DNA of 64,000 bases, taken from assembly GCF_048403405.1 (NCBI RefSeq), contig NZ_CP183129.1. The stretch is one strand, 5' to 3'. A program made the position numbers and the translations under genes. The notes under the pieces were generated by a model, which saw nothing but the letters and a program-made list of their open reading frames with translations, ran no database searches and was not told the DNA's origin. Shown here in pieces: positions 1,318 through 61,795 of the stretch. Source of the DNA: Escherichia coli (GTDB lineage: Bacteria > Pseudomonadota > Gammaproteobacteria > Enterobacterales > Enterobacteriaceae). Numbering within the stretch: position 1 is the first letter of the stretch; every line of letters starts with the position of its first letter.

Positions 1318-1448
1318 TCAAACGACTCGGGGTGCCCTTCTGCGTGAAGGCTGAGAAATACCCGTATCACCTGATCTGGATAATGCCAGCGTAGGGAAGT
1401 CACGGACCACCAGGTCATTGCTTCTTCACGTTATGGCAGGAGCAAACT
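1318..1448 (+). promoter_or_regulatory. TPP (thi-box) riboswitch in the thiM leader
   Basis: Sequence ...CGACUCGGGGUGCCCUUCUGCGUGAAGGCUGAGAAAUACCCGUAUCACCUGAUCUGGAUAAUGCCAGCGUAGGGAAGUC... matches the E. coli thiM TPP aptamer as recalled; it ends at the thiM SD and ATG (1449). Confidence 0.85.
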
Positions 1449-9276: not shown

Positions 9277-9302
9277 AAGGCGTTTACGTCGCATCCGGCA
9301 TA
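9277..9302. repeat. REP-like palindromic element
   Basis: aggcgtttacgtcgcatccggcat resembles the E. coli REP consensus. Confidence 0.5.
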
Positions 9303-9323
9303 AAAACACGCGCACTTTGCTAC

Positions 9324-9352
9324 GGCTTCCCTATCGGGAGGCCGTTTTTTTG
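9324..9352 (+). terminator. Rho-independent terminator downstream of fbaB
   Basis: Imperfect stem cggcttccc/gggaggccg with 4-nt loop followed by T7. Confidence 0.65.
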
Positions 9353-9411
9353 CCTGTCATTCTGATTAATTTTCGAATTGTCGTTTTTGTGATCATTATC
9401 TCGACATTTGA

Positions 9412-11611
<2,200 letters not shown>

Positions 11612-11620
11612 GGACGGTAT

Positions 11621-12073
11621 ATGACTAACCTGTTTGTTCGTAGCGGAATTTCTTTTGTCGATCGTAGCGAAGTTTTAACCCATATCGGTAATGAGATGCT
11701 CGCGAAAGGTGTGGTTCATGATACCTGGCCACAGGCATTAATTGCCAGAGAAGCAGAATTCCCTACCGGGATAATGCTTGAGCAGCACGCCATTGCAATA
11801 CCGCATTGTGAGGCGATTCATGCTAAGTCGTCAGCCATTTATCTGTTAAGGCCAACAAATAAAGTTCATTTTCAGCAAGCGGATGATGATAACGACGTGG
11901 CGGTATCGTTGGTTATTGCGTTAATTGTGGAAAATCCGCAGCAGCAATTGAAACTTTTACGCTGTTTATTTGGCAAGTTACAACAGCCCGATATCGTCGA
12001 GACACTAATCACTCTTCCTGAAACCCAGTTAAAGGAATACTTCACAAAGTATGTTTTAGATTCAGACGAATAA
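11621..12073 (+). CDS. gatA: Galactitol PTS EIIA component, 150 aa
   Basis: ORF track; position and size in the gat operon. Confidence 0.85.
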   Translation: MTNLFVRSGISFVDRSEVLTHIGNEMLAKGVVHDTWPQALIAREAEFPTGIMLEQHAIAIPHCEAIHAKSSAIYLLRPTNKVHFQQADDDNDVAVSLVIALIVENPQQQLKLLRCLFGKLQQPDIVETLITLPETQLKEYFTKYVLDSDE

Positions 12074-12103: not shown

Positions 12104-12388
12104 ATGAAACGCAAGATTATTGTCGCTTGCGGAGGCGCGGTTGCGACCTCTACGATGGCGGCGGAAGAAATTAAAGAGTTGTGTCAGAGTCATAATATTC
12201 CTGTTGAATTAATCCAGTGTCGGGTTAATGAAATAGAAACCTATATGGATGGTGTGCATTTGATATGTACTACCGCCAAAGTTGACCGTAGTTTTGACGA
12301 TATTCCGTTAGTTCACGGCATGCCTTTTGTTTCTGGTGTCGGTATCGAAGCATTACAAAATAAAATTCTGACTATCTTACAGGGGTGA
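12104..12388 (+). CDS. gatB: Galactitol PTS EIIB component, 94 aa
   Basis: ORF track; conserved Cys near N-terminus ([10 protein letters not shown]); operon context. Confidence 0.85.
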
Positions 12389-12391
12389 CCT

Positions 12392-13747
12392 ATGTTTTCA
12401 GAAGTCATGCGTTATATTCTCGACCTCGGCCCTACAGTGATGCTGCCGGTTGTCATCATTATTTTTTCTAAAATATTAGGCATGAAGGCAGGCGATTGCT
12501 TTAAAGCGGGTCTGCATATCGGGATTGGCTTTGTTGGCATTGGCCTTGTGATTGGCTTAATGCTGGATTCCATTGGTCCGGCGGCGAAAGCGATGGCGGA
12601 AAATTTCGACCTGAATCTGCATGTGGTCGATGTCGGCTGGCCGGGCTCTTCACCAATGACCTGGGCGTCGCAAATTGCGCTGGTGGCGATTCCGATTGCG
12701 ATTCTGGTTAACGTGGCGATGTTACTGACCCGTATGACGCGGGTGGTAAATGTTGATATCTGGAATATCTGGCATATGACCTTCACCGGCGCGTTGCTGC
12801 ATCTGGCAACCGGTTCATGGATGATAGGGATGGCGGGTGTGGTAATTCACGCGGCGTTTGTTTATAAGCTCGGCGACTGGTTTGCCCGCGATACCCGAAA
12901 TTTCTTTGAGCTGGAAGGCATTGCTATTCCGCACGGTACGTCGGCGTATCTGGGGCCGATTGCGGTGCTGGTCGATGCTATCATTGAGAAAATCCCAGGC
13001 GTTAACCGAATTAAATTTAGTGCCGATGATATTCAGCGCAAGTTTGGCCCATTTGGCGAACCTGTCACCGTGGGTTTTGTGATGGGGCTGATTATCGGCA
13101 TCCTCGCGGGTTACGATGTCAAAGGTGTATTGCAGCTGGCGGTAAAAACGGCAGCAGTTATGCTGTTGATGCCACGGGTGATTAAACCCATCATGGATGG
13201 TTTAACGCCTATCGCTAAGCAGGCCCGTAGTCGTTTACAGGCGAAGTTCGGCGGTCAGGAGTTCCTGATTGGCCTTGATCCGGCGTTGCTGCTGGGGCAT
13301 ACGGCGGTGGTATCGGCAAGCCTGATTTTTATCCCGCTCACCATTTTAATTGCTGTTTGTGTTCCGGGTAATCAGGTACTGCCGTTTGGCGACCTTGCCA
13401 CCATCGGTTTCTTTGTGGCGATGGCGGTCGCCGTGCATCGTGGAAATCTGTTCCGCACCTTAATCTCGGGTGTCATCATTATGAGCATCACCCTGTGGAT
13501 CGCGACGCAAACTATTGGTTTGCACACCCAACTGGCGGCTAACGCTGGGGCGTTAAAAGCCGGAGGCATGGTGGCATCAATGGATCAGGGCGGTTCTCCC
13601 ATTACCTGGTTACTGATTCAGGTTTTCTCCCCGCAAAATATTCCCGGTTTCATTATTATCGGTGCCATTTATCTTACCGGTATTTTCATGACCTGGCGTA
13701 GAGCGCGTGGTTTTATTAAACAAGAGAAAGCCGTTCTCGCAGAATAA
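12392..13747 (+). CDS. gatC: Galactitol PTS EIIC permease, 451 aa
   Basis: ORF track; polytopic membrane protein; operon context. Confidence 0.85.
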   Translation: MFSEVMRYILDLGPTVMLPVVIIIFSKILGMKAGDCFKAGLHIGIGFVGIGLVIGLMLDSIGPAAKAMAENFDLNLHVVDVGWPGSSPMTWASQIALVAIPIAILVNVAMLLTRMTRVVNVDIWNIWHMTFTGALLHLATGSWMIGMAGVVIHAAFVYKLGDWFARDTRNFFELEGIAIPHGTSAYLGPIAVLVDAIIEKIPGVNRIKFSADDIQRKFGPFGEPVTVGFVMGLIIGILAGYDVKGVLQLAVKTAAVMLLMPRVIKPIMDGLTPIAKQARSRLQAKFGGQEFLIGLDPALLLGHTAVVSASLIFIPLTILIAVCVPGNQVLPFGDLATIGFFVAMAVAVHRGNLFRTLISGVIIMSITLWIATQTIGLHTQLAANAGALKAGGMVASMDQGGSPITWLLIQVFSPQNIPGFIIIGAIYLTGIFMTWRRARGFIKQEKAVLAE

Positions 13748-13794: not shown

Positions 13795-14835
13795 ATGAAA
13801 TCAGTGGTGAATGATACTGATGGTATCGTGCGCGTTGCAGAAAGCGTCATTCCTGAAATTAAACATCAGGATGAGGTACGGGTAAAAATTGCCAGCTCGG
13901 GCTTATGTGGTTCCGATTTACCCAGGATATTTAAAAATGGTGCACATTATTATCCAATAACGTTAGGCCATGAATTTAGCGGCTATATTGATGCGGTGGG
14001 ATCCGGTGTTGATGATTTACACCCTGGCGATGCGGTTGCCTGTGTGCCGTTATTACCCTGTTTTACTTGTCCAGAGTGTTTGAAAGGGTTTTATTCCCAG
14101 TGCGCAAAATATGATTTTATTGGCTCACGGCGTGATGGTGGGTTTGCCGAATATATTGTCGTTAAGCGGAAAAATGTCTTTGCTCTACCTGCGGATATGC
14201 CTATTGAGGATGGGGCTTTTATTGAGCCGATTACCGTTGGCCTGCATGCTTTTCATTTAGCGCAAGGTTGTGAGAATAAAAACGTTATTATTATTGGTGC
14301 CGGAACCATTGGCCTGCTGGCTATTCAGTGCGCTGTCGCGCTGGGAGCAAAGAGTGTGACGGCTATCGACATTAGCTCAGAAAAACTGGCACTGGCAAAA
14401 TCTTTCGGTGCGATGCAAACATTTAACAGCCTTGAAATGAGCGCGCCGCAAATGCAGGGCGTTTTACGCGAGCTGCGCTTTAATCAGCTTATCCTCGAGA
14501 CGGCTGGCGTCCCGCAAACCGTCGAACTGGCGGTAGAGATTGCCGGGCCTCATGCCCAGCTGGCGCTGGTGGGCACGTTGCATCAGGATTTGCATTTAAC
14601 ATCGGCAACGTTTGGCAAAATATTACGTAAAGAGCTGACGGTTATCGGCAGTTGGATGAACTACTCCAGCCCTTGGCCGGGGCAGGAGTGGGAAACGGCG
14701 AGCCGGTTGCTGACAGAACGTAAGTTAAGCCTGGAGCCATTAATCGCTCACCGTGGAAGCTTTGAAAGCTTCGCCCAGGCGGTGCGTGACATCGCTCGTA
14801 ATGCTATGCCGGGCAAAGTGTTGCTCATTCCCTGA
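13795..14835 (+). CDS. gatD: Galactitol-1-phosphate 5-dehydrogenase (Zn-dependent MDR family), 346 aa
   Basis: ORF track; Zn-ADH motifs (GHEFSG, GAGTIGL). Confidence 0.85.
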   Translation: MKSVVNDTDGIVRVAESVIPEIKHQDEVRVKIASSGLCGSDLPRIFKNGAHYYPITLGHEFSGYIDAVGSGVDDLHPGDAVACVPLLPCFTCPECLKGFYSQCAKYDFIGSRRDGGFAEYIVVKRKNVFALPADMPIEDGAFIEPITVGLHAFHLAQGCENKNVIIIGAGTIGLLAIQCAVALGAKSVTAIDISSEKLALAKSFGAMQTFNSLEMSAPQMQGVLRELRFNQLILETAGVPQTVELAVEIAGPHAQLALVGTLHQDLHLTSATFGKILRKELTVIGSWMNYSSPWPGQEWETASRLLTERKLSLEPLIAHRGSFESFAQAVRDIARNAMPGKVLLIP

Positions 14836-14840
14836 AACCG

Positions 14841-14863
14841 CGGGCCAGCGTGATGCTGGCCCG
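14841..14863 (+). terminator. Perfect 9-bp stem-loop (cgggccagc-gtgat-gctggcccg) between gatD and gatR; possible attenuator or weak terminator
   Basis: Read from sequence; no strong T-run follows, so function is uncertain. Confidence 0.35.
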
Positions 14864-14934
14864 GTATTGTGCAAAACAGATCATTCACCAATGGTCCCCC
14901 TTCGTTTACACTAGCCACAATTGAATATGGGTAA

Positions 14935-15714
14935 ATGACGATGAATTCATTCGAGCGAAGGAATAAGATCATCCAATTAGTGAATGAACAGGGAACCGTG
15001 CTTGTTCAGGATCTGGCGGGAGTATTTGCTGCCTCGGAAGCGACAATCCGTGCCGATTTGCGCTTTCTCGAACAAAAAGGCGTAGTTACGCGCTTTCATG
15101 GCGGTGCGGCGAAAATAATGTCCGGTAATAGTGAAACCGAGACTCAGGAAGTTGGGTTTAAAGAGCGATTTCAGCTCGCCAGTGCGCCAAAAAACAGAAT
15201 AGCGCAGGCGGCAGTCAAAATGATCCACGAAGGGATGACCGTTATTCTCGACAGCGGAAGTACCACAATGCTTATCGCCGAAGGTTTAATGACCGCCAAA
15301 AATATCACGGTGATTACCAACAGTCTCCCGGCGGCGTTTGCCCTTTCCGAAAATAAAGACATTACTCTGGTCGTCTGTGGTGGGACCGTCCGCCATAAAA
15401 CACGCTCGATGCATGGTTCCATTGCCGAGCGTTCATTGCAGGATATTAATGCCGATTTAATGTTTGTCGGTGCTGATGGTATTGATGCGGTTAATGGTAT
15501 TACGACCTTTAATGAAGGTTATTCGATTAGCGGGGCAATGGTCACAGCCGCAAATAAAGTGATTGCCGTTCTCGATTCATCGAAATTTAATCGTCGCGGT
15601 TTTAATCAGGTACTGCCAATCGAAAAAATCGACATTATTATTACCGACGATGCTGTGTCAGAGGTGGATAAACTGGCATTGCAGAAGACACGGGTGAAAT
15701 TAATTACGGTGTAG
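14935..15714 (+). CDS. gatR: DeoR-family repressor of the gat operon; intact here
   Basis: ORF track 259 aa (start may be 14941); N-terminal HTH and C-terminal DeoR sugar-binding domain; no IS interruption. Confidence 0.8.
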   Translation: MTMNSFERRNKIIQLVNEQGTVLVQDLAGVFAASEATIRADLRFLEQKGVVTRFHGGAAKIMSGNSETETQEVGFKERFQLASAPKNRIAQAAVKMIHEGMTVILDSGSTTMLIAEGLMTAKNITVITNSLPAAFALSENKDITLVVCGGTVRHKTRSMHGSIAERSLQDINADLMFVGADGIDAVNGITTFNEGYSISGAMVTAANKVIAVLDSSKFNRRGFNQVLPIEKIDIIITDDAVSEVDKLALQKTRVKLITV

Positions 15715-15726
15715 TATTGTTCTGTA

Positions 15727-15758
15727 TGCCGGATAAGGTTTTTACACCGCATCCGGCA
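15727..15758. repeat. REP-like palindromic element between gatR and yegS
   Basis: tgccggataaggtttttacaccgcatccggca resembles the REP consensus. Confidence 0.5.
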
Positions 15759-15795
15759 TTACGGATTCTCCCTGGTTCAAGAGAGAATAGTTTGA

Positions 15796-17584: not shown

Positions 17585-17611
17585 AAAAAATAAGCCCGTG
17601 TAAGGGAGATT
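17585..17611. other. Phage P2 attB core-like sequence (aaaaaataagcccgtgtaagggagatt) at the cyaR 3' end, unoccupied
   Basis: 27-mer read from sequence; matches the P2 attachment core as I recall it; no prophage genes flank it here. Confidence 0.5.
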
Positions 17612-17671
17612 ACACAGGCTAAGGAGGTGGTTCCTGGTACAGCTAGCATTTTATGGGTTATGTTTTTCAGC
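17585..17671 (-). ncRNA. cyaR: CyaR (RyeE) Hfq-dependent sRNA
   Basis: Reverse complement reads GCUGAAAAACAUAACCCAUAAAAUGCUAGCUGUACCAGGAACCACCUCCUUAGCCUGUGUAAUCUCCCUUACACGGGCUUAUUUUUU, matching E. coli CyaR as recalled. Confidence 0.85.
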
Positions 17672-17755
17672 GAAACGGATGATAACCTTAATAAATGCAG
17701 CTGTATGTGATCGGTTTCTAAGAATTTTCCATCCGGGAAAAATAATCGAAATTAA

Positions 17756-30830: not shown

Positions 30831-30989
30831 TGGAGGAATTATGAAACACTGTCGGGAATCGTCTGAATGACGGGCACATTTGCGAGCACGCATCCAGTAA
30901 TAACACATGAAACTATTTTATCTGCAAGTTAGCGATAGACTGCTTGCATGGCGAAAGGAGGTAAGCCGCCGTTTTCAGCGGGACGCTGA

Positions 30990-31128
30990 AACGGGAAAGC
31001 CCCTCCCGAGGAAGGGGCCTTAAATAAGGAAAGGGTCATGATGAAGCTACTCATCATCGTGGTGCTCTTAGTGATTAGCTACCCAGCATACTAAGACTAC
31101 CAGGGCGGGGGAAACCCCGCTCTACCCT
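30990..31128 (-). ncRNA. Sib-family antisense sRNA (type I antitoxin), copy 1; ends approximate
   Basis: Minus-strand promoter-like TTGACA-17-TACTTT near 31135..31165 and hairpin gcccct/aggggc plus U-rich tail near 30995..31018; fully overlaps ibs copy 1. Confidence 0.5.
31038..31094 (+). CDS. Ibs-family type I toxin peptide, copy 1 (MMKLLIIVVLLVISYPAY)
   Basis: 18-codon ORF with SD aaggaaagggtc upstream; Ibs-like hydrophobic peptide. Confidence 0.75.
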   Translation: MMKLLIIVVLLVISYPAY

Positions 31129-31317
31129 CACTCCTGAAAGTATGCCTTCACGATAAGATTGTCAATCTGCAGGCTTTGCAGTCTGCGATCCTGCCAGCAA
31201 ATATTCTTTGCGAGACGTTACGCAATAATCACACTGGAAACTATTTTATCCGCAAGTCAGCGATAGACTGCATACAGGGCGAAAGGAGGTAAGCCGACGA
31301 TTTCAGCGGGACGCTGA

Positions 31318-31456
31318 AACGGGAAAGCCCCTCCCGAGGAAGGGGCCTTAAATAAGGAAAGGGTCATGATGAAGATACTCATCATCGTGGTGCTCTTAGT
31401 GATTAGCTACCCAGCATACTAAGACTACCAGGGCGGGGGAAACCCCGCTCTACCCT
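31318..31456 (-). ncRNA. Sib-family antisense sRNA, copy 2; ends approximate
   Basis: Same elements at equivalent positions in repeat unit 2. Confidence 0.5.
31366..31422 (+). CDS. Ibs-family type I toxin peptide, copy 2 (MMKILIIVVLLVISYPAY)
   Basis: Same position within repeat unit 2. Confidence 0.75.
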   Translation: MMKILIIVVLLVISYPAY

Positions 31457-31646
31457 CACTCCTGAAAGTATGCCTTCACGATAAGATTGTCAATCCGCAG
31501 GCTTTGCAGTCTGCGATCCTGCCAGCAAATATTCTTTGCGAGTCGTTACGCAATAATCACAGAGGAAACTATTTTGGTCACGCGTTAGCGATAGACTGCA
31601 TTCAGGGCGAAAGGAGGTAAGCCGACGATTTCAGCGGGACGCTGAA

Positions 31647-31790
31647 ACGGGAAACCCTCTCCCGGAGAAGAGGGCTTTTAATAAGGAAAGGGTTATGATG
31701 AAGCACGTCATCATACTGGAGATACTCTTAGTGATTAGCTTCCAGGCTTACTAAGAACACCAGGGGGAGGGAGAAACCTCTCCCTAACCC
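31647..31790 (-). ncRNA. Sib-family antisense sRNA, copy 3; ends approximate
   Basis: Equivalent position in unit 3; minus-strand TTGACA-17-TAATTT promoter-like element near 31800..31830. Confidence 0.45.
31695..31754 (+). CDS. Ibs-family type I toxin peptide, copy 3 (MMKHVIILEILLVISFQAY), IbsA-like but with an internal Glu
   Basis: 19-codon ORF in repeat unit 3; GAG codon read directly from sequence. Confidence 0.7.
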   Translation: MMKHVIILEILLVISFQAY

Positions 31791-31974
31791 TCACTCCTGA
31801 AATTATGTCACTCCGCCCTTAGTGTCAATCGACGGCTCTCCGTTCTTGCGAGGCGAATAGCAAAATTTTCTGCGCCGCCGGGCCTAATTCTGAAAGTTTC
31901 TTCGTTTGCTCTTATTTCATTATTGCAATCGGTATGATACCGGGCCTCAATAATTCTCTAAGAAAGGATTTCTT

Positions 31975-46876: not shown

Positions 46877-47344
46877 AGTAAGTACAAAACCTATTCGTTG
46901 TATGACAAATGTCACAATTCGATCATGGATAAATCGGGGCAAAAATGCAATGTTGCAGCACTATTTATCTCATATTATTTGAGGGTAATAACCTCACATT
47001 ACCCCTGAATTAAAAGTGGTAATAATAAAACATTATTTAAGAAATATCGCATGTGGAGACACTATATTAAATATTGTCAACCTAAAGAAACTCCTAAAAA
47101 CCATATTGAATGACACTTAATATAATTCTTAAAAATAGCCAATTGCCGAATTGTTACCTTGCCTGCTATTCCGTTAGCTGTAACACTTCCTCCTGCATTA
47201 TTGGAGAGCCAATATTCAATTACCATAATGTCACCTTATATTCGGAAGTTAATTTCCGCAATAACCCTTTCTCATCAACGACTGTATGTTGAGAGGGTTT
47301 TAAAAATTAAGCTAAATCAGTGTATTGGTAGCTAAAAAGCCAGG

Positions 47345-47356
47345 GGCGGTAGCGTG
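47345..47356 (+). promoter_or_regulatory. ops element (GGCGGTAGCGTG) within a JUMPStart-like leader upstream of wza
   Basis: Exact ops 12-mer read from sequence about 180 bp upstream of the wza ATG; RfaH-dependent antitermination site in polysaccharide operons. Confidence 0.7.
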
Positions 47357-51350: not shown

Positions 51351-51380
51351 AAACCAGCTCATAAGCCGGGAGAACAACCT

Positions 51381-52220
51381 ATGAAAGACAATCCGCTGAT
51401 TTCAATCTATATGCCGACCTGGAACCGTCAACAACTGGCGATTCGGGCGATAAAATCGGTCCTGCGCCAGGACTACAGTAACTGGGAGATGATCATCGTG
51501 GATGATTGCTCCACCTCCTGGGAACAACTACAACAGTACGTCACCTCCCTCAACGATCCGCGTATCACTTACATTCACAACGACATTAACAGCGGGGCGT
51601 GCGCGGTACGTAACCAGGCGATTATGCTGGCGCAAGGGGAATACATCACCGGGATCGATGATGATGATGAATGGACACCCAACCGCCTGAGCGTCTTCCT
51701 CGCCCATAAACAGCAACTGGTCACTCACGCCTTTTTGTACGCTAACGACTACGTTTGCCAGGGCGAAGTCTATTCCCAACCGGCAAGCTTGCCGCTGTAT
51801 CCCAAATCGCCGTATTCACGCCGCCTGTTCTACAAACGCAATATCATTGGCAATCAGGTCTTTACCTGGGCGTGGCGTTTCAAAGAGTGCTTGTTCGATA
51901 CCAAACTGAAAGCGGCACAGGATTACGACATCTTCCTGCGGATGGTGGTGGAGTACGGCGAACCGTGGAAAGTGGAAGAGGCGACGCAGATCCTGCATAT
52001 CAATCATGGTGAAATGCAGATCACCTCGTCACCGAAAAAATTCTCCGGATACTTCCACTTTTACCGCAAGCACAAAGACAAATTCGACCGCGCCAGCAAA
52101 AAATATCAGCTGTTTACCCTCTACCAGATCCGCAATAAACGCATGACCTGGCGCACTTTGCTGACGCTGCTGTCGGTGCGTAACGGCAAACGTCTGGCTG
52201 ATGGTATTCGGGGGCGCTAA
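51381..52220 (+). CDS. wcaA: Colanic acid glycosyltransferase (GT2), 279 aa
   Basis: ORF track; recognised WcaA sequence. Confidence 0.85.
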   Translation: MKDNPLISIYMPTWNRQQLAIRAIKSVLRQDYSNWEMIIVDDCSTSWEQLQQYVTSLNDPRITYIHNDINSGACAVRNQAIMLAQGEYITGIDDDDEWTPNRLSVFLAHKQQLVTHAFLYANDYVCQGEVYSQPASLPLYPKSPYSRRLFYKRNIIGNQVFTWAWRFKECLFDTKLKAAQDYDIFLRMVVEYGEPWKVEEATQILHINHGEMQITSSPKKFSGYFHFYRKHKDKFDRASKKYQLFTLYQIRNKRMTWRTLLTLLSVRNGKRLADGIRGR

Positions 52221-52222
52221 AG

Positions 52223-52711
52223 ATGCTGGAAGATCTGCGCGCCAACAGCTGGAGTTTACGTCCGTGCTGCATGGTTCTTGCCTATCGCGTCGCTCATTTT
52301 TGTTCGGTGTGGCGCAAAAAGAACGTCCTCAACAATCTGTGGGCGGCCCCGCTGCTGGTGCTGTATCGCATTATCACCGAATGCTTTTTCGGTTATGAAA
52401 TCCAGGCCGCCGCGACCATAGGCCGACGCTTTACTATCCATCACGGTTACGCCGTGGTGATCAATAAAAACGTGGTCGCGGGGGATGATTTCACCATTCG
52501 TCACGGCGTCACTATCGGCAATCGTGGTGCCGATAACATGGCATGTCCACACATTGGCAACGGCGTCGAACTCGGTGCCAACGTCATTATTCTTGGTGAT
52601 ATCACGCTTGGTAACAACGTCACCGTGGGCGCGGGCAGCGTGGTGCTCGACTCTGTCCCGGACAACGCGCTGGTGGTGGGAGAAAAAGCGCGAGTGAAGG
52701 TAATTAAATGA
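52223..52711 (+). CDS. wcaB: Colanic acid acetyltransferase (hexapeptide repeat), 162 aa
   Basis: ORF track; left-handed beta-helix repeats. Confidence 0.85.
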   Translation: MLEDLRANSWSLRPCCMVLAYRVAHFCSVWRKKNVLNNLWAAPLLVLYRIITECFFGYEIQAAATIGRRFTIHHGYAVVINKNVVAGDDFTIRHGVTIGNRGADNMACPHIGNGVELGANVIILGDITLGNNVTVGAGSVVLDSVPDNALVVGEKARVKVIK

Positions 52712-53925
52712 ATATTCTGCAATTCAATGTGCGACTGGCGGAAGGCGGGGCAGCAGGTGTGGCGTTAGATCTCCACCAGCGTGCGCTGCAACAGGGGCTG
52801 GCATCACATTTTGTCTACGGCTACGGCAAAGGCGGCAAAGAGAGCGTCAGCCATCAGAACTATCCGCAGGTCATCAAACATACGCCGCGGATGACCGCGA
52901 TGGCGAACATTGCGTTGTTTCGTCTGCTTAATCGCGATCTGTTCGGCAATTTCAATGAGTTATATCGTACCATTACTCGCACACCGGGCCCGGTGGTTCT
53001 GCATTTTCATGTGCTGCACAGCTACTGGTTGAATCTTAACAGCGTGGTGCGCTTTTGCGAAAAAGTGAAAAACCATAAACCGGATGTCACTCTGGTCTGG
53101 ACACTGCACGACCACTGGAGCGTTACCGGACGCTGCGCCTTTACCGACGGTTGCGAAGGCTGGAAAACGGGCTGCCAGAAATGCCCGACCTTAAATAATT
53201 ATCCGCCGGTGAAGATTGATCGCGCACACCAACTGGTGGCGGGTAAACGCCAGTTATTCCGCGAGATGCTGGCACTGGGCTGTCAGTTTATTTCCCCCAG
53301 CCAGCATGTGGCTGATGCTTTCAATAGTCTGTACGGTCCAGGGCGTTGCCGGATTATCAATAACGGTATTGATATGGCAACCGAAGCGATTCTGGCGGAC
53401 TTGCCTCCGGTACGCGAAACCCAGGGCAAGCCGAAAATCGCGGTGGTGGCGCATGACCTGCGTTACGACGGCAAAACTAACCAGCAACTGGTACGCGAGA
53501 TGATGGCGCTGGGCGACAAAATCGAACTGCATACTTTCGGTAAGTTCTCGCCGTTCACCGCTGGTAACGTTGTTAATCACGGCTTTGAAACTGACAAACG
53601 TAAACTGATGAGCGCGCTCAACCAGATGGATGCGCTGGTGTTCAGTTCTCGCGTCGATAACTACCCGCTGATTTTGTGTGAGGCGCTATCAATTGGTGTG
53701 CCGGTGATTGCCACCCATAGCGATGCGGCGCGTGAAGTGCTGCAAAAATCCGGCGGTAAAACCGTCAGCGAAGAAGAGGTGCTGCAACTGGTGCAGTTAA
53801 GCAAACCGGAAATTGCGCAGGCGATATTTGGTACCACGCTGGCTGGGTTTAGCCAACGCAGCCGCGCCGCCTACAGTGGACAACAGATGCTGGAGGAGTA
53901 TGTCAACTTCTATCAGAATCTGTAG
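52708..53925 (+). CDS. wcaC: Colanic acid glycosyltransferase (GT4), 405 aa
   Basis: ORF track; overlaps wcaB stop. Confidence 0.85.
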   Translation: MNILQFNVRLAEGGAAGVALDLHQRALQQGLASHFVYGYGKGGKESVSHQNYPQVIKHTPRMTAMANIALFRLLNRDLFGNFNELYRTITRTPGPVVLHFHVLHSYWLNLNSVVRFCEKVKNHKPDVTLVWTLHDHWSVTGRCAFTDGCEGWKTGCQKCPTLNNYPPVKIDRAHQLVAGKRQLFREMLALGCQFISPSQHVADAFNSLYGPGRCRIINNGIDMATEAILADLPPVRETQGKPKIAVVAHDLRYDGKTNQQLVREMMALGDKIELHTFGKFSPFTAGNVVNHGFETDKRKLMSALNQMDALVFSSRVDNYPLILCEALSIGVPVIATHSDAAREVLQKSGGKTVSEEEVLQLVQLSKPEIAQAIFGTTLAGFSQRSRAAYSGQQMLEEYVNFYQNL

Positions 53926-55117
53926 CTACCTACTGCTGCCGCTGATTTACCTGCTGGTTAACGTCAAAATAGCCCAGCTTGGCGAAAGTTTCCCCATTAC
54001 CATCGTCACTTTTTTACCCGTCTTGTTACTGCTGTTTTTAGAGCGCATCAACGTTAAAAAATTGATGATTGCCTTAGGGGTTGGTGCGGGACTCACGGCG
54101 TTTAACTACCTGTTTGGTCAGTCGTTGGATGCCAGTAAATACGTCACTTCAACCATGCTGTTTGTCTATATTGTGATCATTATTGGCATGGTGTGGAGTA
54201 TTCGTTTTAAAACAATTTCGCCACACAACCATCGCAAGATATTACGTTTCTTTTATCTGGTGGTCGGGCTGGTGGTGGCGCTGGCGGCGGTGGAGATGGC
54301 GCAAATTATCCTCACCGGCGGTAGCAGTATTATGGAGTCGATTTCGAAATATCTGATTTACAGCAACAGCTATGTGCTGAATTTCATTAAATTCGGCGGC
54401 AAGCGCACGACAGCACTTTATTTCGAACCGGCATTTTTCGCTCTGGCATTAATCTCAATTTGGCTCAGCATCAAACAGTTTGGTATCAAAACGCCTAAAA
54501 CCGATGCTATGATTCTCGCAGGGATAATATTATCCGGATCGTTTTCAGGGGTTATGACCTTTATCCTTTTTTATTTGCTGGAGTGGGCATTTCAATATCT
54601 GAATAAAGAGGCGATTAAGAAAAAGTTACCGTTAGCATTGGTTTCTCTGGCTGTATTCCTGGTTGGTGTGGTAATCGCGTTTCCTTATATTTCCACCCGT
54701 CTGGGTGATTTAGGCACGGAAGGTTCGTCATCGTATTATCGTATTGTCGGTCCGCTGGTGATGGTCGGTTATTCTTTGACCCATATTGACGGTGTAGTCA
54801 GATTTGGCTCACTTTATGAATATGTCGCATCATTCGGAATATTTAACGGTGCGGATGTCGGAAAAACCATAGACAATGGTTTGTATCTGCTGATTATTTA
54901 TTTTTCCTGGTTCGCAGTGTTTTTATCGCTGTGGTACATGGGGAAAGTGATAAAAATGATGATCAACGCTTTTGGTGATAACCGCAATTTTCGCGTGCAA
55001 TTATATTTTTTTACTCCGGTATCGCTGTTTTTTACCGGTTCGATATTTAGCCCGGAATATGCATTTTTAATCGTCTGTCCGTTTATTTTGCGAAAAGCGT
55101 TAAATATTACGAGGTAA
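53900..55117 (+). CDS. wcaD: Colanic acid polymerase (Wzy-like), 405 aa
   Basis: ORF 53813..55117; start moved to [10 protein letters not shown]; polytopic membrane protein. Confidence 0.8.
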
Positions 55118-55127
55118 GAATAAGAAC

Positions 55128-55874
55128 ATGTTGCTTAGCATAATCACTGTCGCGTTTCGTAACCTCGAAGGGATAGTCAAAACACATGCCTCGCTGGCGC
55201 ATCTAGCGCAGGTGGACGATATCAGCTTCGAATGGATTGTTGTCGATGGCGGTTCCAACGACGGTACCCGTGAGTATCTGGAAAATCTCAAGGGTATCTA
55301 TAACCTACGCTTTGTCAGCGAGCCAGATAACGGTATCTACGACGCCATGAACAAGGGCATTGCGATGGCACAAGGCAAGTTCGCGTTGTTTCTCAACTCG
55401 GGCGATATTTTTCATCAGGATGCCGCAAATTTTGTCCGTAAGTTAAAAGTGCAAAAAGATAACGTGATGATCACCGGCGATGCGCTGCTGGATTTTGGCG
55501 ACGGGCATAAAATTAAACGTAGCGCCAAACCGGGCTGGTATATTTACCACAGCCTGCCCGCCAGTCATCAGGCGATATTTTTCCCGGTGTCCGGCTTGAA
55601 GAAATGGCGTTATGACCTGGAATATAAAGTTTCTTCCGACTACGCGCTGGCGGCCAAAATGTATAAAGCCGGTTATGCATTTAAAAAACTCAATGGCCTG
55701 GTGTCTGAATTTTCCATGGGTGGGGTATCTACCACCAATAATATGGAATTGTGTGCTGATGCCAAAAAAGTCCAACGGCAAATATTACATGTGCCTGGCT
55801 TCTGGGCAGAATTATCCTGGCATTTACGCCAGCGTACTACCTCAAAGACGAAAGCCTTATATAACAAAAGCTGA
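55128..55874 (+). CDS. wcaE: Colanic acid glycosyltransferase (GT2), 248 aa
   Basis: ORF track. Confidence 0.85.
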
Positions 55875-55889
55875 ATATAAGGGAAAACG

Positions 55890-56438
55890 ATGCAGGATTT
55901 AAGTGGGTTCTCGGTGCCGAAAGGGTTCCGGGGCAGCAATGCTATTAAAGTGCAATTATGGTGGGCGGTACAGGCAACAATATTTGCCTGGTCGCCACAA
56001 GTATTGTATCGCTGGCGGGCATTTTTATTACGTTTATTCGGCGCAAAAATAGGAAAAAACGTAGTTATTCGTCCGTCAGTAAAAATTACCTATCCGTGGA
56101 AATTAACCTTAGGTGATTACGCGTGGGTCGGCGATGAGGTCAATTTATATACCCTCGGTGAAATAACCATTGGCGCACATTCGGTGATATCGCAAAAAAG
56201 TTATTTATGCACCGGGAGCCACGACCATGCAAGTCAACATTTCACCATTAACGCCACGCCTATTGTGATTGGCGAGAAATGCTGGCTGGCGACAGATGTT
56301 TTTGTTGCCCCTGGCGTCACGATCGGCAACGGCACCGTCGTGGGTGCGCGAAGCAGTGTTTTTAAATCGCTTCCGGCAAATGTGGTTTGCCGGGGGAACC
56401 CCGCAGTGGTGATACGCAAACGCGTTGAAACTGAATAA
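55890..56438 (+). CDS. wcaF: Colanic acid acetyltransferase (hexapeptide repeat), 182 aa
   Basis: ORF track. Confidence 0.85.
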   Translation: MQDLSGFSVPKGFRGSNAIKVQLWWAVQATIFAWSPQVLYRWRAFLLRLFGAKIGKNVVIRPSVKITYPWKLTLGDYAWVGDEVNLYTLGEITIGAHSVISQKSYLCTGSHDHASQHFTINATPIVIGEKCWLATDVFVAPGVTIGNGTVVGARSSVFKSLPANVVCRGNPAVVIRKRVETE

Positions 56439-56464
56439 ATTCAAAAAATACAGAGGAATAAGAC

Positions 56465-57586
56465 ATGTCAAAAGTCGCTCTCATCACCGGCGTAACCGGA
56501 CAAGACGGTTCTTACCTGGCAGAGTTTCTGCTGGAAAAAGGTTACGAGGTGCATGGTATTAAGCGTCGCGCATCGTCATTCAACACCGAGCGCGTGGATC
56601 ACATTTATCAGGATCCGCACACCTGCAACCCGAAATTCCATCTGCATTATGGCGACCTGAGTGATACCTCCAACCTGACGCGCATTTTGCGTGAAGTGCA
56701 GCCGGATGAAGTGTACAACCTGGGCGCAATGAGCCACGTTGCGGTTTCTTTTGAGTCACCGGAATATACCGCTGACGTCGACGCGATGGGTACGCTGCGT
56801 CTGCTGGAGGCGATCCGCTTCCTCGGTCTGGAAAAGAAAACCCGTTTCTATCAGGCTTCCACCTCTGAACTGTATGGTCTGGTGCAGGAAATTCCGCAGA
56901 AAGAAACCACGCCGTTCTATCCACGCTCTCCGTATGCGGTCGCCAAACTGTACGCCTACTGGATCACCGTTAACTACCGCGAATCCTACGGCATGTACGC
57001 CTGTAACGGTATTCTCTTCAACCATGAATCCCCGCGCCGCGGCGAAACCTTCGTTACCCGCAAAATCACCCGCGCAATCGCCAACATCGCCCAGGGGCTG
57101 GAATCGTGCCTGTACCTCGGCAATATGGATTCCCTGCGTGACTGGGGCCATGCCAAAGACTACGTAAAAATGCAGTGGATGATGCTGCAACAGGAACAAC
57201 CGGAAGATTTCGTTATTGCCACCGGCGTTCAGTACTCCGTGCGTCAGTTCGTGGAAATGGCGGCAGCACAACTGGGCATCAAACTGCGCTTTGAAGGTAC
57301 GGGCGTTGAAGAGAAGGGCATTGTGGTTTCCGTCACCGGGCATGACGCGCCGGGCGTTAAACCGGGTGATGTGATTATCGCCGTTGATCCGCGTTACTTC
57401 CGTCCGGCTGAAGTTGAAACGCTGCTCGGCGACCCGACCAAAGCGCACGAAAAACTGGGCTGGAAACCGGAAATCACCCTCAGAGAGATGGTGTCTGAAA
57501 TGGTGGCTAATGACCTTGAAGCGGCGAAAAAACACTCTCTGCTGAAATCTCACGGCTACGACGTGGCGATCGCGCTGGAGTCATAA
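56465..57586 (+). CDS. gmd: GDP-mannose 4,6-dehydratase, 373 aa
   Basis: ORF track; SDR motifs GVTGQDGSY. Confidence 0.9.
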
Positions 57587-57588
57587 GC

Positions 57589-58554
57589 ATGAGTAAACAA
57601 CGCATTTTTATCGCTGGCCATCGCGGGATGGTCGGTTCCGCCATCAGGCGGCAGCTCGAACAGCGCGGTGATGTGGAACTGGTATTACGCACCCGCGACG
57701 AGCTGAACCTGCTGGACAGCCGCGCGGTGCATGATTTCTTTGCCAGCGAACGTATTGACCAGGTCTATCTGGCGGCGGCGAAAGTGGGCGGCATTGTTGC
57801 CAACAACACCTATCCGGCAGATTTCATCTACCAGAACATGATGATTGAGAGCAACATCATTCACGCCGCGCATCAGAACGACGTGAACAAACTGCTGTTT
57901 CTCGGATCGTCCTGTATCTACCCGAAACTGGCAAAACAGCCGATGGCAGAAAGCGAGTTATTGCAGGGTACGCTGGAGCCGACTAACGAGCCTTATGCTA
58001 TTGCCAAAATCGCCGGGATCAAACTGTGCGAATCTTACAACCGCCAGTATGGACGCGATTATCGCTCGGTCATGCCGACCAACCTGTATGGCCCGCATGA
58101 CAACTTCCACCCGAGTAATTCGCATGTGATCCCTGCATTGCTGCGTCGCTTCCACGAGGCGACGGCACAGAATGCACCGGACGTGGTGGTGTGGGGCAGC
58201 GGTACACCGATGCGCGAATTTCTGCACGTCGATGATATGGCGGCGGCGAGCATTCATGTGATGGAGCTGGCGCACGAAGTCTGGCTGGAGAACACCCAAC
58301 CGATGCTGTCGCACATTAACGTCGGCACGGGCGTTGACTGCACTATCCGCGAGCTGGCGCAAACCATCGCCAAAGTGGTGGGTTACAAAGGTCGGGTGGT
58401 TTTTGATGCCAGTAAACCGGATGGTACACCGCGCAAACTGCTGGATGTGACACGCCTGCATCAGCTTGGCTGGTATCACGAAATCTCACTGGAAGCGGGG
58501 CTCGCCAGCACTTACCAGTGGTTCCTTGAGAATCAAGACCGCTTTCGGGGGTAA
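57589..58554 (+). CDS. fcl: GDP-L-fucose synthase, 321 aa
   Basis: ORF track; NAD(P)-binding GHRGMVGSA. Confidence 0.9.
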
Positions 58555-58556
58555 TG

Positions 58557-59036
58557 ATGTTTTTACGTCAGGAAGACTTTGCCACGGTAGTGCGCTCTAC
58601 TCCGCTTGTCTCTCTCGACTTTATTGTCGAGAACAGTCGCGGCGAGTTTCTGCTTGGCAAAAGAACCAACCGCCCGGCGCAGGGTTACTGGTTTGTGCCG
58701 GGAGGGCGCGTGCAGAAAGACGAAACGCTGGAAGCCGCATTTGAGCGGCTGACGATGGAGGAACTGGGGCTGCGTCTGCCGATAACAGTAGGCCAGTTTT
58801 ACGGTGTCTGGCAGCACTTTTATGACGATAACTTCTCCGACACGGATTTCACCACTCACTATGTGGTGCTCGGTTTTCGCTTCAGAGTCGCTGAAGAAGA
58901 TCTGTTACTGCCGGATGAGCAGCATGACGATTACCGCTGGCTGACGCCGGACGCGTTGCTCGCCAGTGACAATGTTCACGCTAACAGCCGCGCCTATTTT
59001 CTCGCTGAGAAGCGTGCCGGAGTTCCCGGATTATGA
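58557..59036 (+). CDS. gmm: GDP-mannose mannosyl hydrolase (Nudix), 159 aa
   Basis: ORF 58554..59036; second Met chosen as start. Confidence 0.85.
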
Positions 59037-60256
59037 AAATACTGGTCTACGGCATTAACTACTCGCCGGAGTTAACCGGCATCGGCAAGTACACCGGCGA
59101 GATGGTGGAATGGCTGGCGGCACAAGGTCATGAGGTGCGGGTTATTACCGCACCGCCTTACTACCCGCAATGGCAGGTGGGCGAGAACTATTCCGCCTGG
59201 CGGTACAAACGAGAAGAGGGGGCCGCCACGGTGTGGCGCTGCCCGCTGTACGTGCCAAAACAGCCGAGCACCCTGAAACGCCTGTTGCATCTCGGCAGTT
59301 TTGCCGCCAGCAGTTTCTTTCCGCTGATGGCGCAACGTCGCTGGAAGCCGGATCGCATTATCGGCGTGGTGCCAACGCTGTTTTGCACGCCGGGAATGCG
59401 CCTGCTGGCGAAACTGTCTGGTGCGCGCACGGTGCTGCATATTCAGGATTACGAAGTGGACGCCATGCTGGGGCTGGGCCTTGCCGGAAAAGGCAAAGGC
59501 GGCAAAGTGGCACAGCTGGCGACGGCGTTCGAACGTAGCGGACTGCATAACGTCGATAACGTCTCCACGATTTCGCGTTCGATGATGAATAAAGCCATCG
59601 AAAAAGGCGTGGCGGCAGAAAACGTCATCTTCTTCCCCAACTGGTCGGAAATCGCCCGTTTTCAACATGTTGCAGACGCCGATGTTGACGACCTTCGTAA
59701 CCAGCTTGCCCTGCCGGATAACAAAAAAATCATTCTTTACTCCGGCAATATTGGTGAAAAGCAGGGGCTGGAAAACGTTATTGAAGCTGCCGATCGCCTG
59801 CGCGATGAACCGCTTATTTTTGCCATTGTCGGGCAGGGCGGCGGCAAAGCGCGGCTGGAAAAAATGGCGCAGCAGCGTGGACTGCGCAACATGCAATTTT
59901 TTCCGCTGCAATCATATGACGCTTTACCCGCACTGCTGAAGATGGGCGATTGCCATCTGGTGGTGCAAAAACGCGGCGCGGCAGATGCCGTATTGCCGTC
60001 GAAACTGACCAATATTCTGGCGGTAGGCGGTAACGCGGTGATTACTGCTGAAGCCCACACAGAACTGGGACAGCTTTGCGAAACCTTTCCGGGCATTGCG
60101 GTTTGCGTGGAACCGGAATCGGTCGAGGCGCTGGTGGCGGGGATTCGTCAGGCGCTCCTGCTGCCCAAACACAACACGGTGGCACGTGAATATGCCGAAC
60201 GCACGCTCGATAAAGAGAACGTGTTACGTCAATTTATAAATGATATTCGGGGATAA
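59033..60256 (+). CDS. wcaI: Colanic acid glycosyltransferase (GT4), 407 aa
   Basis: ORF track; overlaps gmm stop. Confidence 0.85.
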
Positions 60257-60258
60257 TT

Positions 60259-61695
60259 ATGGCGCAGTCGAAACTCTATCCAGTTGTGATGGCAGGTGGC
60301 TCCGGTAGCCGCTTATGGCCGCTTTCCCGCGTACTTTACCCCAAGCAGTTTTTATGCCTGAAAGGCGATCTCACCATGCTGCAAACCACCATCTGCCGCC
60401 TGAACGGCGTGGAGTGCGAAAGCCCGGTGGTGATTTGCAATGAGCAGCACCGCTTTATTGTCGCGGAACAGCTGCGTCAACTGAATAAACTCACCGAGAA
60501 CATTATTCTCGAACCGGCAGGGCGTAACACTGCACCTGCCATTGCGCTGGCGGCGCTGGCGGCAAAACGTCATAGCCCGGAGAGCGACCCGTTAATGCTG
60601 GTCTTGGCGGCGGATCATGTGATTGCCGACGAAGACGCGTTCCGTGCCGCCGTGCGTAATGCCATGCCGTATGCCGAAGCGGGTAAGCTGGTCACCTTCG
60701 GCATTGTGCCGGATCTACCTGAAACCGGATATGGCTATATTCGTCGCGGTGAAGTGTCGGCGGGCGAGCAGGATACGGTGGCCTTTGAAGTGGCGCAGTT
60801 TGTCGAAAAACCGAATCTGGAAACCGCTCAGGCCTATGTGGCAAGCGGCGAATATTACTGGAACAGCGGTATGTTCCTGTTCCGTGCCGGACGCTATCTC
60901 GAAGAACTGAAAAAATATCGCCCGGATATTCTCGATGCCTGCGAAAAAGCGATGAGCGCCGTCGATCCGGATCTCGATTTTATTCGTGTGGATGAAGAAG
61001 CGTTTCTGGCCTGCCCGGAAGAGTCGGTGGATTACGCGGTCATGGAACGCACGGCAGATGCCGTTGTGGTGCCGATGGATGCAGGCTGGAGCGATGTCGG
61101 CTCCTGGTCCTCTTTATGGGAGATCAGCGCCCACACCGCCGAGGGCAACGTTTGCCATGGCGATGTGATTAATCACAAAACTGAAAACAGCTATGTGTAT
61201 GCCGAATCTGGCCTGGTCACCACCGTCGGGGTGAAAGATTTGGTGGTAGTGCAGACCAAAGATGCGGTGCTGATTGCCGACCGTAATGCGGTGCAGGATG
61301 TGAAAAAAGTGGTCGAGCAGATCAAAGCTGATGGTCGCCATGAGCATCGGGTGCATCGCGAAGTGTATCGTCCGTGGGGCAAATATGACTCTATCGACGC
61401 GGGCGACCGCTATCAGGTGAAACGCATCACCGTGAAACCGGGCGAAGGCTTGTCAGTACAGATGCACCATCACCGCGCGGAACACTGGGTAGTGGTCGCG
61501 GGAACGGCAAAAGTCACTATTGACGGTGATATCAAACTGCTTGGTGAAAACGAGTCCATTTATATTCCGCTGGGGGCGACGCACTGCCTGGAAAACCCGG
61601 GGAAAATTCCGCTCGATTTAATTGAAGTGCGCTCCGGCTCTTATCTCGAAGAGGATGATGTGGTGCGCTTCGCGGATCGCTACGGACGGGTGTAG
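60259..61695 (+). CDS. cpsB: Mannose-1-phosphate guanylyltransferase, 478 aa
   Basis: ORF track; recognised ManC/CpsB sequence. Confidence 0.9.
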
Positions 61696-61795
61696 CCGTT
61701 GAATAATCAACCGGATTAATTCTCCGGTAAATAACGAAAAAACAAAATTGGCCGTTTCGGTCAGGGCCAACTATTGCCTGAAAAAGGGTAACGAC

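Follow-up and report, generated by a model that had tools for sequence, protein, structure and literature searches.

An uninterrupted gatR next to a complete gatYZABCD operon in an Escherichia coli chromosome, with a predicted operator arrangement at the gatY start site

The stretch of Escherichia coli DNA analysed here (64 kb, hereafter the window) contains gatY, gatZ, gatA, gatB, gatC and gatD in this order, each at full length and with a single terminal stop, with gatR immediately following gatD in the same orientation and converging on yegS, and with fbaB upstream of the operon. The features of this region, apart from those of the gatY promoter, are the following:

9322-9351, + strand: fbaB terminator called by a terminator scan, a 10-bp stem plus T-run, insulating the gatY promoter from upstream transcription
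9466-10320, + strand: gatY, NCBIfam 562.9 bits (cut-off 384)
10349-11611, + strand: gatZ, NCBIfam 903.3 bits (cut-off 579)
11621-12073, + strand: gatA, NCBIfam 298.7 bits (cut-off 139)
12104-12388, + strand: gatB, NCBIfam 200.2 bits (cut-off 95)
12392-13747, + strand: gatC, NCBIfam 709.5 bits (cut-off 542.2)
13795-14835, + strand: gatD, NCBIfam 726.6 bits (cut-off 550)
14841-14863, + strand: perfect 9-bp stem-loop, an inverted repeat just after gatD with no T-run
14896-14907, + strand: candidate GatR box CCCCCTTCGTTT, matrix score 9.5, rank 17 in the window
14941-15714, + strand: gatR coding sequence, 257 aa plus stop, within the longest open reading frame from 14935
14956-15114, + strand: HTH_DeoR DNA-binding domain, residues 6-58 (Pfam PF08220, E 1.3e-16, 60.5 bits against a cut-off of 21)
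15187-15648, + strand: DeoRC effector-sensing domain, residues 83-236 (Pfam PF00455, E 2.5e-51, 174.2 bits against a cut-off of 31.8)
15237-15239, unstranded: the site (GAC) of the K-12 IS3E insertion (1,258 bp), unoccupied in the window, from the blastn break against MG1655 and the junction sequences
15726-15759, unstranded: REP-like hairpin, an inverted repeat with 14-nt arms, between the convergent gatR and yegS

All six genes score above their curated NCBIfam cut-offs, in agreement with the intact gatYZABCD operon beside gatR described in the initial annotation, and the six Gat proteins are identical to non-pseudogene copies annotated in strain TUM14771. We place the start of gatY at the ATG at 9466, which is preceded at a distance of 7 nt by the Shine-Dalgarno sequence AGGA (9455-9458); an ATG at 9460 (giving MKM...) was rejected, as it lies 1 nt from the AGGA. 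This in-frame ATG, two codons before the gatY start, is GTG in ST131, O157:H7 and strain E69. The fbaB-gat-yegS layout is shared with K-12, HS and TUM14771, and the order gatYZABCDR is kept in about 45 enterobacterial species.

The segment 14935-15714 (+) forms one uninterrupted open reading frame of 259 codons; a frameshift or premature stop was looked for across it and none was found, and the earlier reading of gatR as a gene without a break holds. The start is the one point on which that reading is revised, from 14935 to the likelier 14941: 1) there are two in-frame ATGs six bases apart, and the RefSeq start for the identical gene in TUM14771 and HS is the second, giving 774 bases and 257 aa. 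2) The ATG at 14941 is the sole one of the two conserved across other genera, the upstream ATG being replaced in Pluralibacter and C. amalonaticus. 3) A GGG at 14929-14931 lies 9 nt from the ATG at 14941 and just 3 nt from that at 14935. Conservation and Shine-Dalgarno spacing thus speak for 14941, and 14935 was rejected. The product is identical to the RefSeq protein WP_001295426.1 of TUM14771, and the exact 257-aa sequence occurs on at least 1000 contigs, some sources naming it galactitol utilization operon repressor. The scores of its two Pfam domains lie well above their cut-offs, so that the reading frame is no product of chance, and with an N-terminal HTH_DeoR domain and a C-terminal DeoRC domain GatR belongs to the DeoR family. 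Its best NCBIfam matches are AgaR (E 3e-69) and SrlR (E 4e-67), and it scores below both equivalog cut-offs (AgaR NF040755, 232.9 against 260; SrlR NF007753, 226.3 against 350); hence GatR is a DeoR-family paralogue that is neither AgaR nor SrlR. These two repressors, of N-acetylgalactosamine and glucitol systems respectively, share the two-domain architecture of GatR and likewise repress PTS sugar or sugar-alcohol operons, but differ from it in genomic context and substrate. The AgaR operators described by Ray and Larson in 2004 are said to be TTTC-rich. Among solved structures a search with GatR recovered only a distant relative, the DeoR C-terminal domain 7l6l (E 1.9e-11).

We compared this gene with K-12, in which gatR (b4498) has the same position and orientation between gatD and yegS. 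In contrast to the uninterrupted copy in the window, gatR in the MG1655 record is a two-piece pseudogene of 299 and 475 bases split by IS3E, which bears out the statement in the initial annotation that the K-12 gene is broken by IS3; gatC is a frameshifted pseudogene in the same record. The alignment between the window and MG1655 breaks exactly at 15237-15239 and the junctions display a 3-bp GAC target duplication. The window is contiguous over these positions, and the K-12-type gatR::IS3E, with its GAC duplication after codon 99, is absent from it; the alignment with the K-12 gatR region that had been proposed as a check thereby maps the IS3E interruption and finds the present copy contiguous. 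When IS3E and the 3-bp duplication are removed and the K-12 fragments joined, their translation is identical to the GatR of the window at 257/257 residues. The two genes nevertheless differ at 22 positions in DNA, all of them synonymous (dN 0, dS 0.134), and such a combination of values points to strong purifying selection on gatR. The pattern is that of a gene maintained in nature by such selection, its disruption in the K-12 line being only recent. Nobelmann and Lengeler reportedly described wild-type gatR along with the gat operon in J Bacteriol in 1996, and an intact gatR beside gatYZABCD is the already known wild-type state.

A 965-base query spanning gatR, compared with 5,426 complete E. 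coli genomes, was matched in 5109 of them, and the region is uninterrupted, as counted by match coverage (one match over at least 80% of the query), in 4756/5426 (~88%). Intact gatR is therefore the norm of the species and not a peculiarity of this strain, K-12 being the exception. Exceptions among the genomes examined include XH1815, with a K-12-type IS3 insertion, BL21(RP), in which the 5' end of gatR is lost and the remainder joined to tynA, and PCP06238, with an IS1-bounded deletion running from fbaB through gatR; F2_81 carries an internal stop in gatY. Such independent gat lesions in public genomes fit a recurrent loss or deregulation of the locus.

The constitutive gat expression of K-12 and its derivatives is attributed to the IS insertion (PMC5850726, PMC9189660, PMC4072538, PMC5094792), so that the literature (in particular PMC5850726, PMC9189660 and PMC4072538) agrees with the initial annotation on this point. 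Sousa et al. (2017) introduced gatR of E. coli HS in exchange for the K-12 pseudogene, which made gat expression regulated instead of constitutive, and new IS insertions in the restored gatR gave constitutive mutants in the mouse gut, where regulated and constitutive expression have different fitness consequences (PMC5850726). HS shares the locus layout of the window and encodes the identical GatR protein (WP_001295426.1), while its gatY promoter differs from that of the window at about ten positions. Because the GatR protein is the same as the one that restores regulation in K-12, we strongly infer, from sequence, that galactitol catabolism would be repressor-controlled in this strain. It is conceivable that the locus looks intact and is yet silent or constitutive owing to a lesion that does not show as a frameshift, such as a defect in the promoter or operator or in trans; loss or deregulation of gat recurs (the K-12 IS3 insertion, the PCP06238 deletion, the F2_81 gatY stop and the BL21(RP) gatR truncation), and in the mouse gut gatR acquires new IS insertions (PMC5850726). 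However, all seven proteins are identical to copies that carry a functional annotation in other strains, the GatR sequence is unchanged from the functional protein of HS and the conserved promoter blocks are present, and we regard such a hidden defect as highly improbable. Under the preferred reading, that of repressor control, gat expression data from constitutive K-12 should not be transferred to strains like this one; beyond correct annotation, the intact gatR matters little.

Repeated tttgaaa-like motifs upstream of gatY had been reported in the initial annotation, and we accordingly examined this region for putative operators. The elements that can be read from it are the following:

9366-9386, + strand: upstream operator-like region TTAATTTTCGAATTGTCGTTT, immediately 5' of the CRP-like site, aligning with CTTTCGATTCTTTCG repeats of other genera
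9388-9403, + strand: CRP-like site TGTGA-N6-TCTCG, read from the sequence and centred at about -41.5 from the predicted start
9401-9430, + strand: predicted gatY promoter, with -35 TCGACA (9401-9406), an 18-nt spacer and -10 CATTAT (9425-9430)
9407-9413, + strand: first TTTGAAA, in the spacer between -35 and -10, matched in the alignment by a CCGAAA(C/G) box in other genera
9431-9455, unstranded: downstream operator-like region over the predicted start, with the second TTTGAAA, the TTACTTTCGATT box and AAACGACA at 9448-9455

The two TTTGAAA copies (9407-9413 and 9433-9439, both +) lie 26 bp apart and extend to a 12-nt direct repeat. In the whole 64 kb the heptamer occurs 8 times against 14.5 expected, and from eight random sites we estimate a chance expectation of ~0.05 pairs within 60 nt, so that the clustering taken alone is weak evidence. 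We gathered the gatY upstream regions of related loci, which gave 27 non-redundant promoters, and found that their top hexamers are CTTTCG (48 against 4.9 expected) and CGAAAG (32 against 2.4), together 80 against about 7 expected, with several copies per promoter, these counts being inflated by the relatedness of the promoters. A 12-nt matrix trained on the gatY and gatR upstream regions from outside Escherichia only was used to scan both strands of the window. Its top match, ranked first among about 128,000 positions with a score of 15.2, is TTACTTTCGATT at 9438-9449 (-), which corresponds to +2..+13 of the predicted gatY promoter; a top match falling by chance in a 100-nt target is estimated at about 0.2%. 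The other E. coli boxes are degenerate, with low scores from this cross-genus matrix. A full-text literature search for published GatR binding sites yielded no operator sequence.

These data allow the TTTGAAA pair to be weighed against a chance origin in an AT-rich intergenic region, unrelated to GatR. The heptamer, as counted above, is not over-represented across the window, its exact form is missing from the orthologous promoters of other genera, and most E. coli, including K-12, HS and O157:H7, have TTTAAAA in place of the first copy. Against this, each of the two copies falls, in the alignment, where other genera have a CGAAA or TTTCGAA box, and the second adjoins the best-scoring CTTTCG box and does not vary within Escherichia, the encompassing TTTTGAAATCGAAA (9432-9445) being unchanged across 12 Escherichia alleles. 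A chance origin is accordingly possible but on the unlikely side. TTTGAAA was rejected as a definition of the operator, not being enriched in the window, and the CTTTCG/CGAAAG core is preferred; in our reading of these alignments TTTGAAA appears to be a degenerate E. coli form of the CTTTCG/CGAAAG box, with only the second copy conserved. Thus the earlier observation did pick up genuine operator-like sequence, TTTGAAA being present at 9407 and 9433, while the conserved element is the CTTTCG/CGAAAG box and the first copy is polymorphic. As a by-product, this cross-genus box model may help in RefSeq-style naming and in the design of footprinting experiments.

The remaining elements of the promoter are likewise predicted. 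A promoter consensus scan returned one site against 0.7 expected by chance, which by itself is a weak match; its -10 CATTAT is invariant in Escherichia and the predicted transcription start lies near 9437. The left half of the CRP-like site is also invariant in Escherichia, and other genera have an N6-ATCACA half-site at the same place. Expression of gatY and gatZ is ~50-fold lower in a cya mutant, and gatY, gatZ and gatD are CRP-dependent (PMC4512719). The two halves of the upstream region TTAATTTTCGAATTGTCGTTT are inverted copies of 9437-9450 and 9448-9455, that is, of parts of the downstream region.

A further candidate box precedes gatR itself, in the spacer that separates it from gatD. 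The box CCCCCTTCGTTT at 14896-14907 is the counterpart, by alignment, of the CCTTCGATTA conserved in other genera. In genera other than Escherichia and Pluralibacter, and apart from C. amalonaticus, three CTTTCG-type boxes follow a conserved GAGCCAGC...GCTGGCTC hairpin upstream of gatR; in Escherichia the last box only is present, and an unrelated CAAAACAGATCATTCACCA segment occupies the place of the others. A consensus promoter scan upstream of gatR returned nothing convincing. The hairpin at 14841-14863 was not called a terminator in a terminator scan after gatD, and a hairpin at this position 3' of gatD is conserved in other genera; it is possibly a partial terminator or an mRNA-stabilising hairpin.

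The above observations suggest the following scheme of regulation. In the absence of galactitol, an oligomer of GatR, presumed by analogy with other DeoR-family repressors, would bind boxes of the CTTTCG/CGAAAG type, most strongly at the gatY start (9431-9455) and more weakly at 9407-9413, between the -35 and the -10, and at 9366-9386, 5' of the CRP site. Joint occupation of these boxes would exclude RNA polymerase from what is predicted to be a CRP-dependent class II promoter. On induction a phosphorylated intermediate, most likely galactitol-1-phosphate generated by the GatABC PTS, would bind the DeoRC domain and cause release of the repressor, the inducer being assigned by analogy with other sugar repressors of the DeoR family. 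The similar box at 14896-14907 suggests that gatR is autoregulated, and the lack of a T-run in the gatD-gatR hairpin suggests read-through into gatR from the gatY promoter; gatR would thus probably be transcribed both by this read-through and from a separate weak promoter subject to autoregulation. With this predicted start-site operator model included, we consider it highly probable that the locus is an ordinary wild-type E. coli gat locus and that gatR encodes the DeoR-family repressor of gatYZABCD.

A comparable and independent case is offered by TagR of E. coli Nissle 1917, a DeoR-family repressor encoded beside a tagatose-bisphosphate aldolase gene (PMC12226905). The operators predicted for it, CTTTCAAAATGAAAG, cover the start site, and a CRP site lies immediately 5' of the -35, a layout like the one proposed here for gatY (PMC12226905), and CTTTCAAAATGAAAG has the same core as the CTTTCG/CGAAAG boxes. 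Unlike gat, the TagR locus is divergently oriented and encodes an ABC transporter rather than a PTS, and the proposed effector is free D-tagatose (PMC12226905).

The gatY promoter of the window is an uncommon allele. In a comparison of a 136-nt segment (window 9335-9470) across 5103 genomes, only 179 carry a version at least 99% identical to it, and 3569 of the 5103 fall at 80-90% identity. The segment is ~11% diverged from K-12, set beside a dS of 0.03-0.13 in the flanking genes; a hypervariable regulatory region was considered and ruled out, since the synonymous divergence of the flanking genes is similar. It could still be argued that gatR is intact and that this unusual promoter gives tighter repression, or a different induced level, than in HS or the reference strain. 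Three of its boxes are nearer to the CTTTCG/CGAAAG consensus, its -35, TCGACA and not TCGATA, is likewise nearer to consensus, and one REP-like segment is missing, ~80 extra REP-like bases being present in the fbaB-gatY spacer of K-12 and HS at the point corresponding to 9288-9289 and absent here and in TUM14771. Its TTTGAAA and CGAAAG are each common to only some lineages, near-identical segments are rare, as counted above, and TTTTCGAA at 9370 is unique among the 12 Escherichia alleles. On the other hand, neither the strongest box nor the CRP half-site varies, and the divergence of the promoter is about that of synonymous sites in the flanking genes, for which reason neutral drift explains the allele. 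An altered switch of this kind is in our estimation rather improbable. That the rare allele (at least 99% identity, ~3.5% of complete genomes) is a naturally selected cis-regulatory variant changing the tightness or strength of the switch seems to us very doubtful; if true, a selected promoter variant would sit at a locus under strong, fluctuating selection in the gut. We therefore retain neutral drift as the account of this allele.

The remainder of the window is ordinary E. coli chromosome. The gat region is 100% identical to TUM14771, GN02461, 3059, MS 69-1 and TUM1226, and the colanic acid end to MS 69-1, 4621 and TUM1226. Identity to TUM14771 is 99.8% over 1-31472, then 95-98% from 31472, and 85.7% over the wza-wca colanic acid genes (51366-61670). 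The last value was considered as a sign of an unusual window and dismissed, the allele in the window being the common one; this in turn implies that TUM14771 is the recombinant. The window and K-12 cease to be colinear at 17602, where the latter has the P2-like remnant ogrK/yegZ and the site in the window appears unoccupied; the CyaR sRNA lies at 17588-17673 (-). Three tandem copies of the SIB RNA (Sib/Ibs type I toxin-antitoxin) are found at 31023-31165, 31351-31493 and 31680-31828 (-), a locus at which HS and TUM14771 annotate two ibs toxin genes only, and alignments to both of these strains display an internal duplication pattern over 30895-31807. Three further RNA elements occur where they are expected: a TPP riboswitch (thiM) at 1318-1414 (+), a JUMPstart element upstream of wza at 47318-47356 (+), and an algC RNA motif in the colanic acid cluster at 61742-61791 (+).
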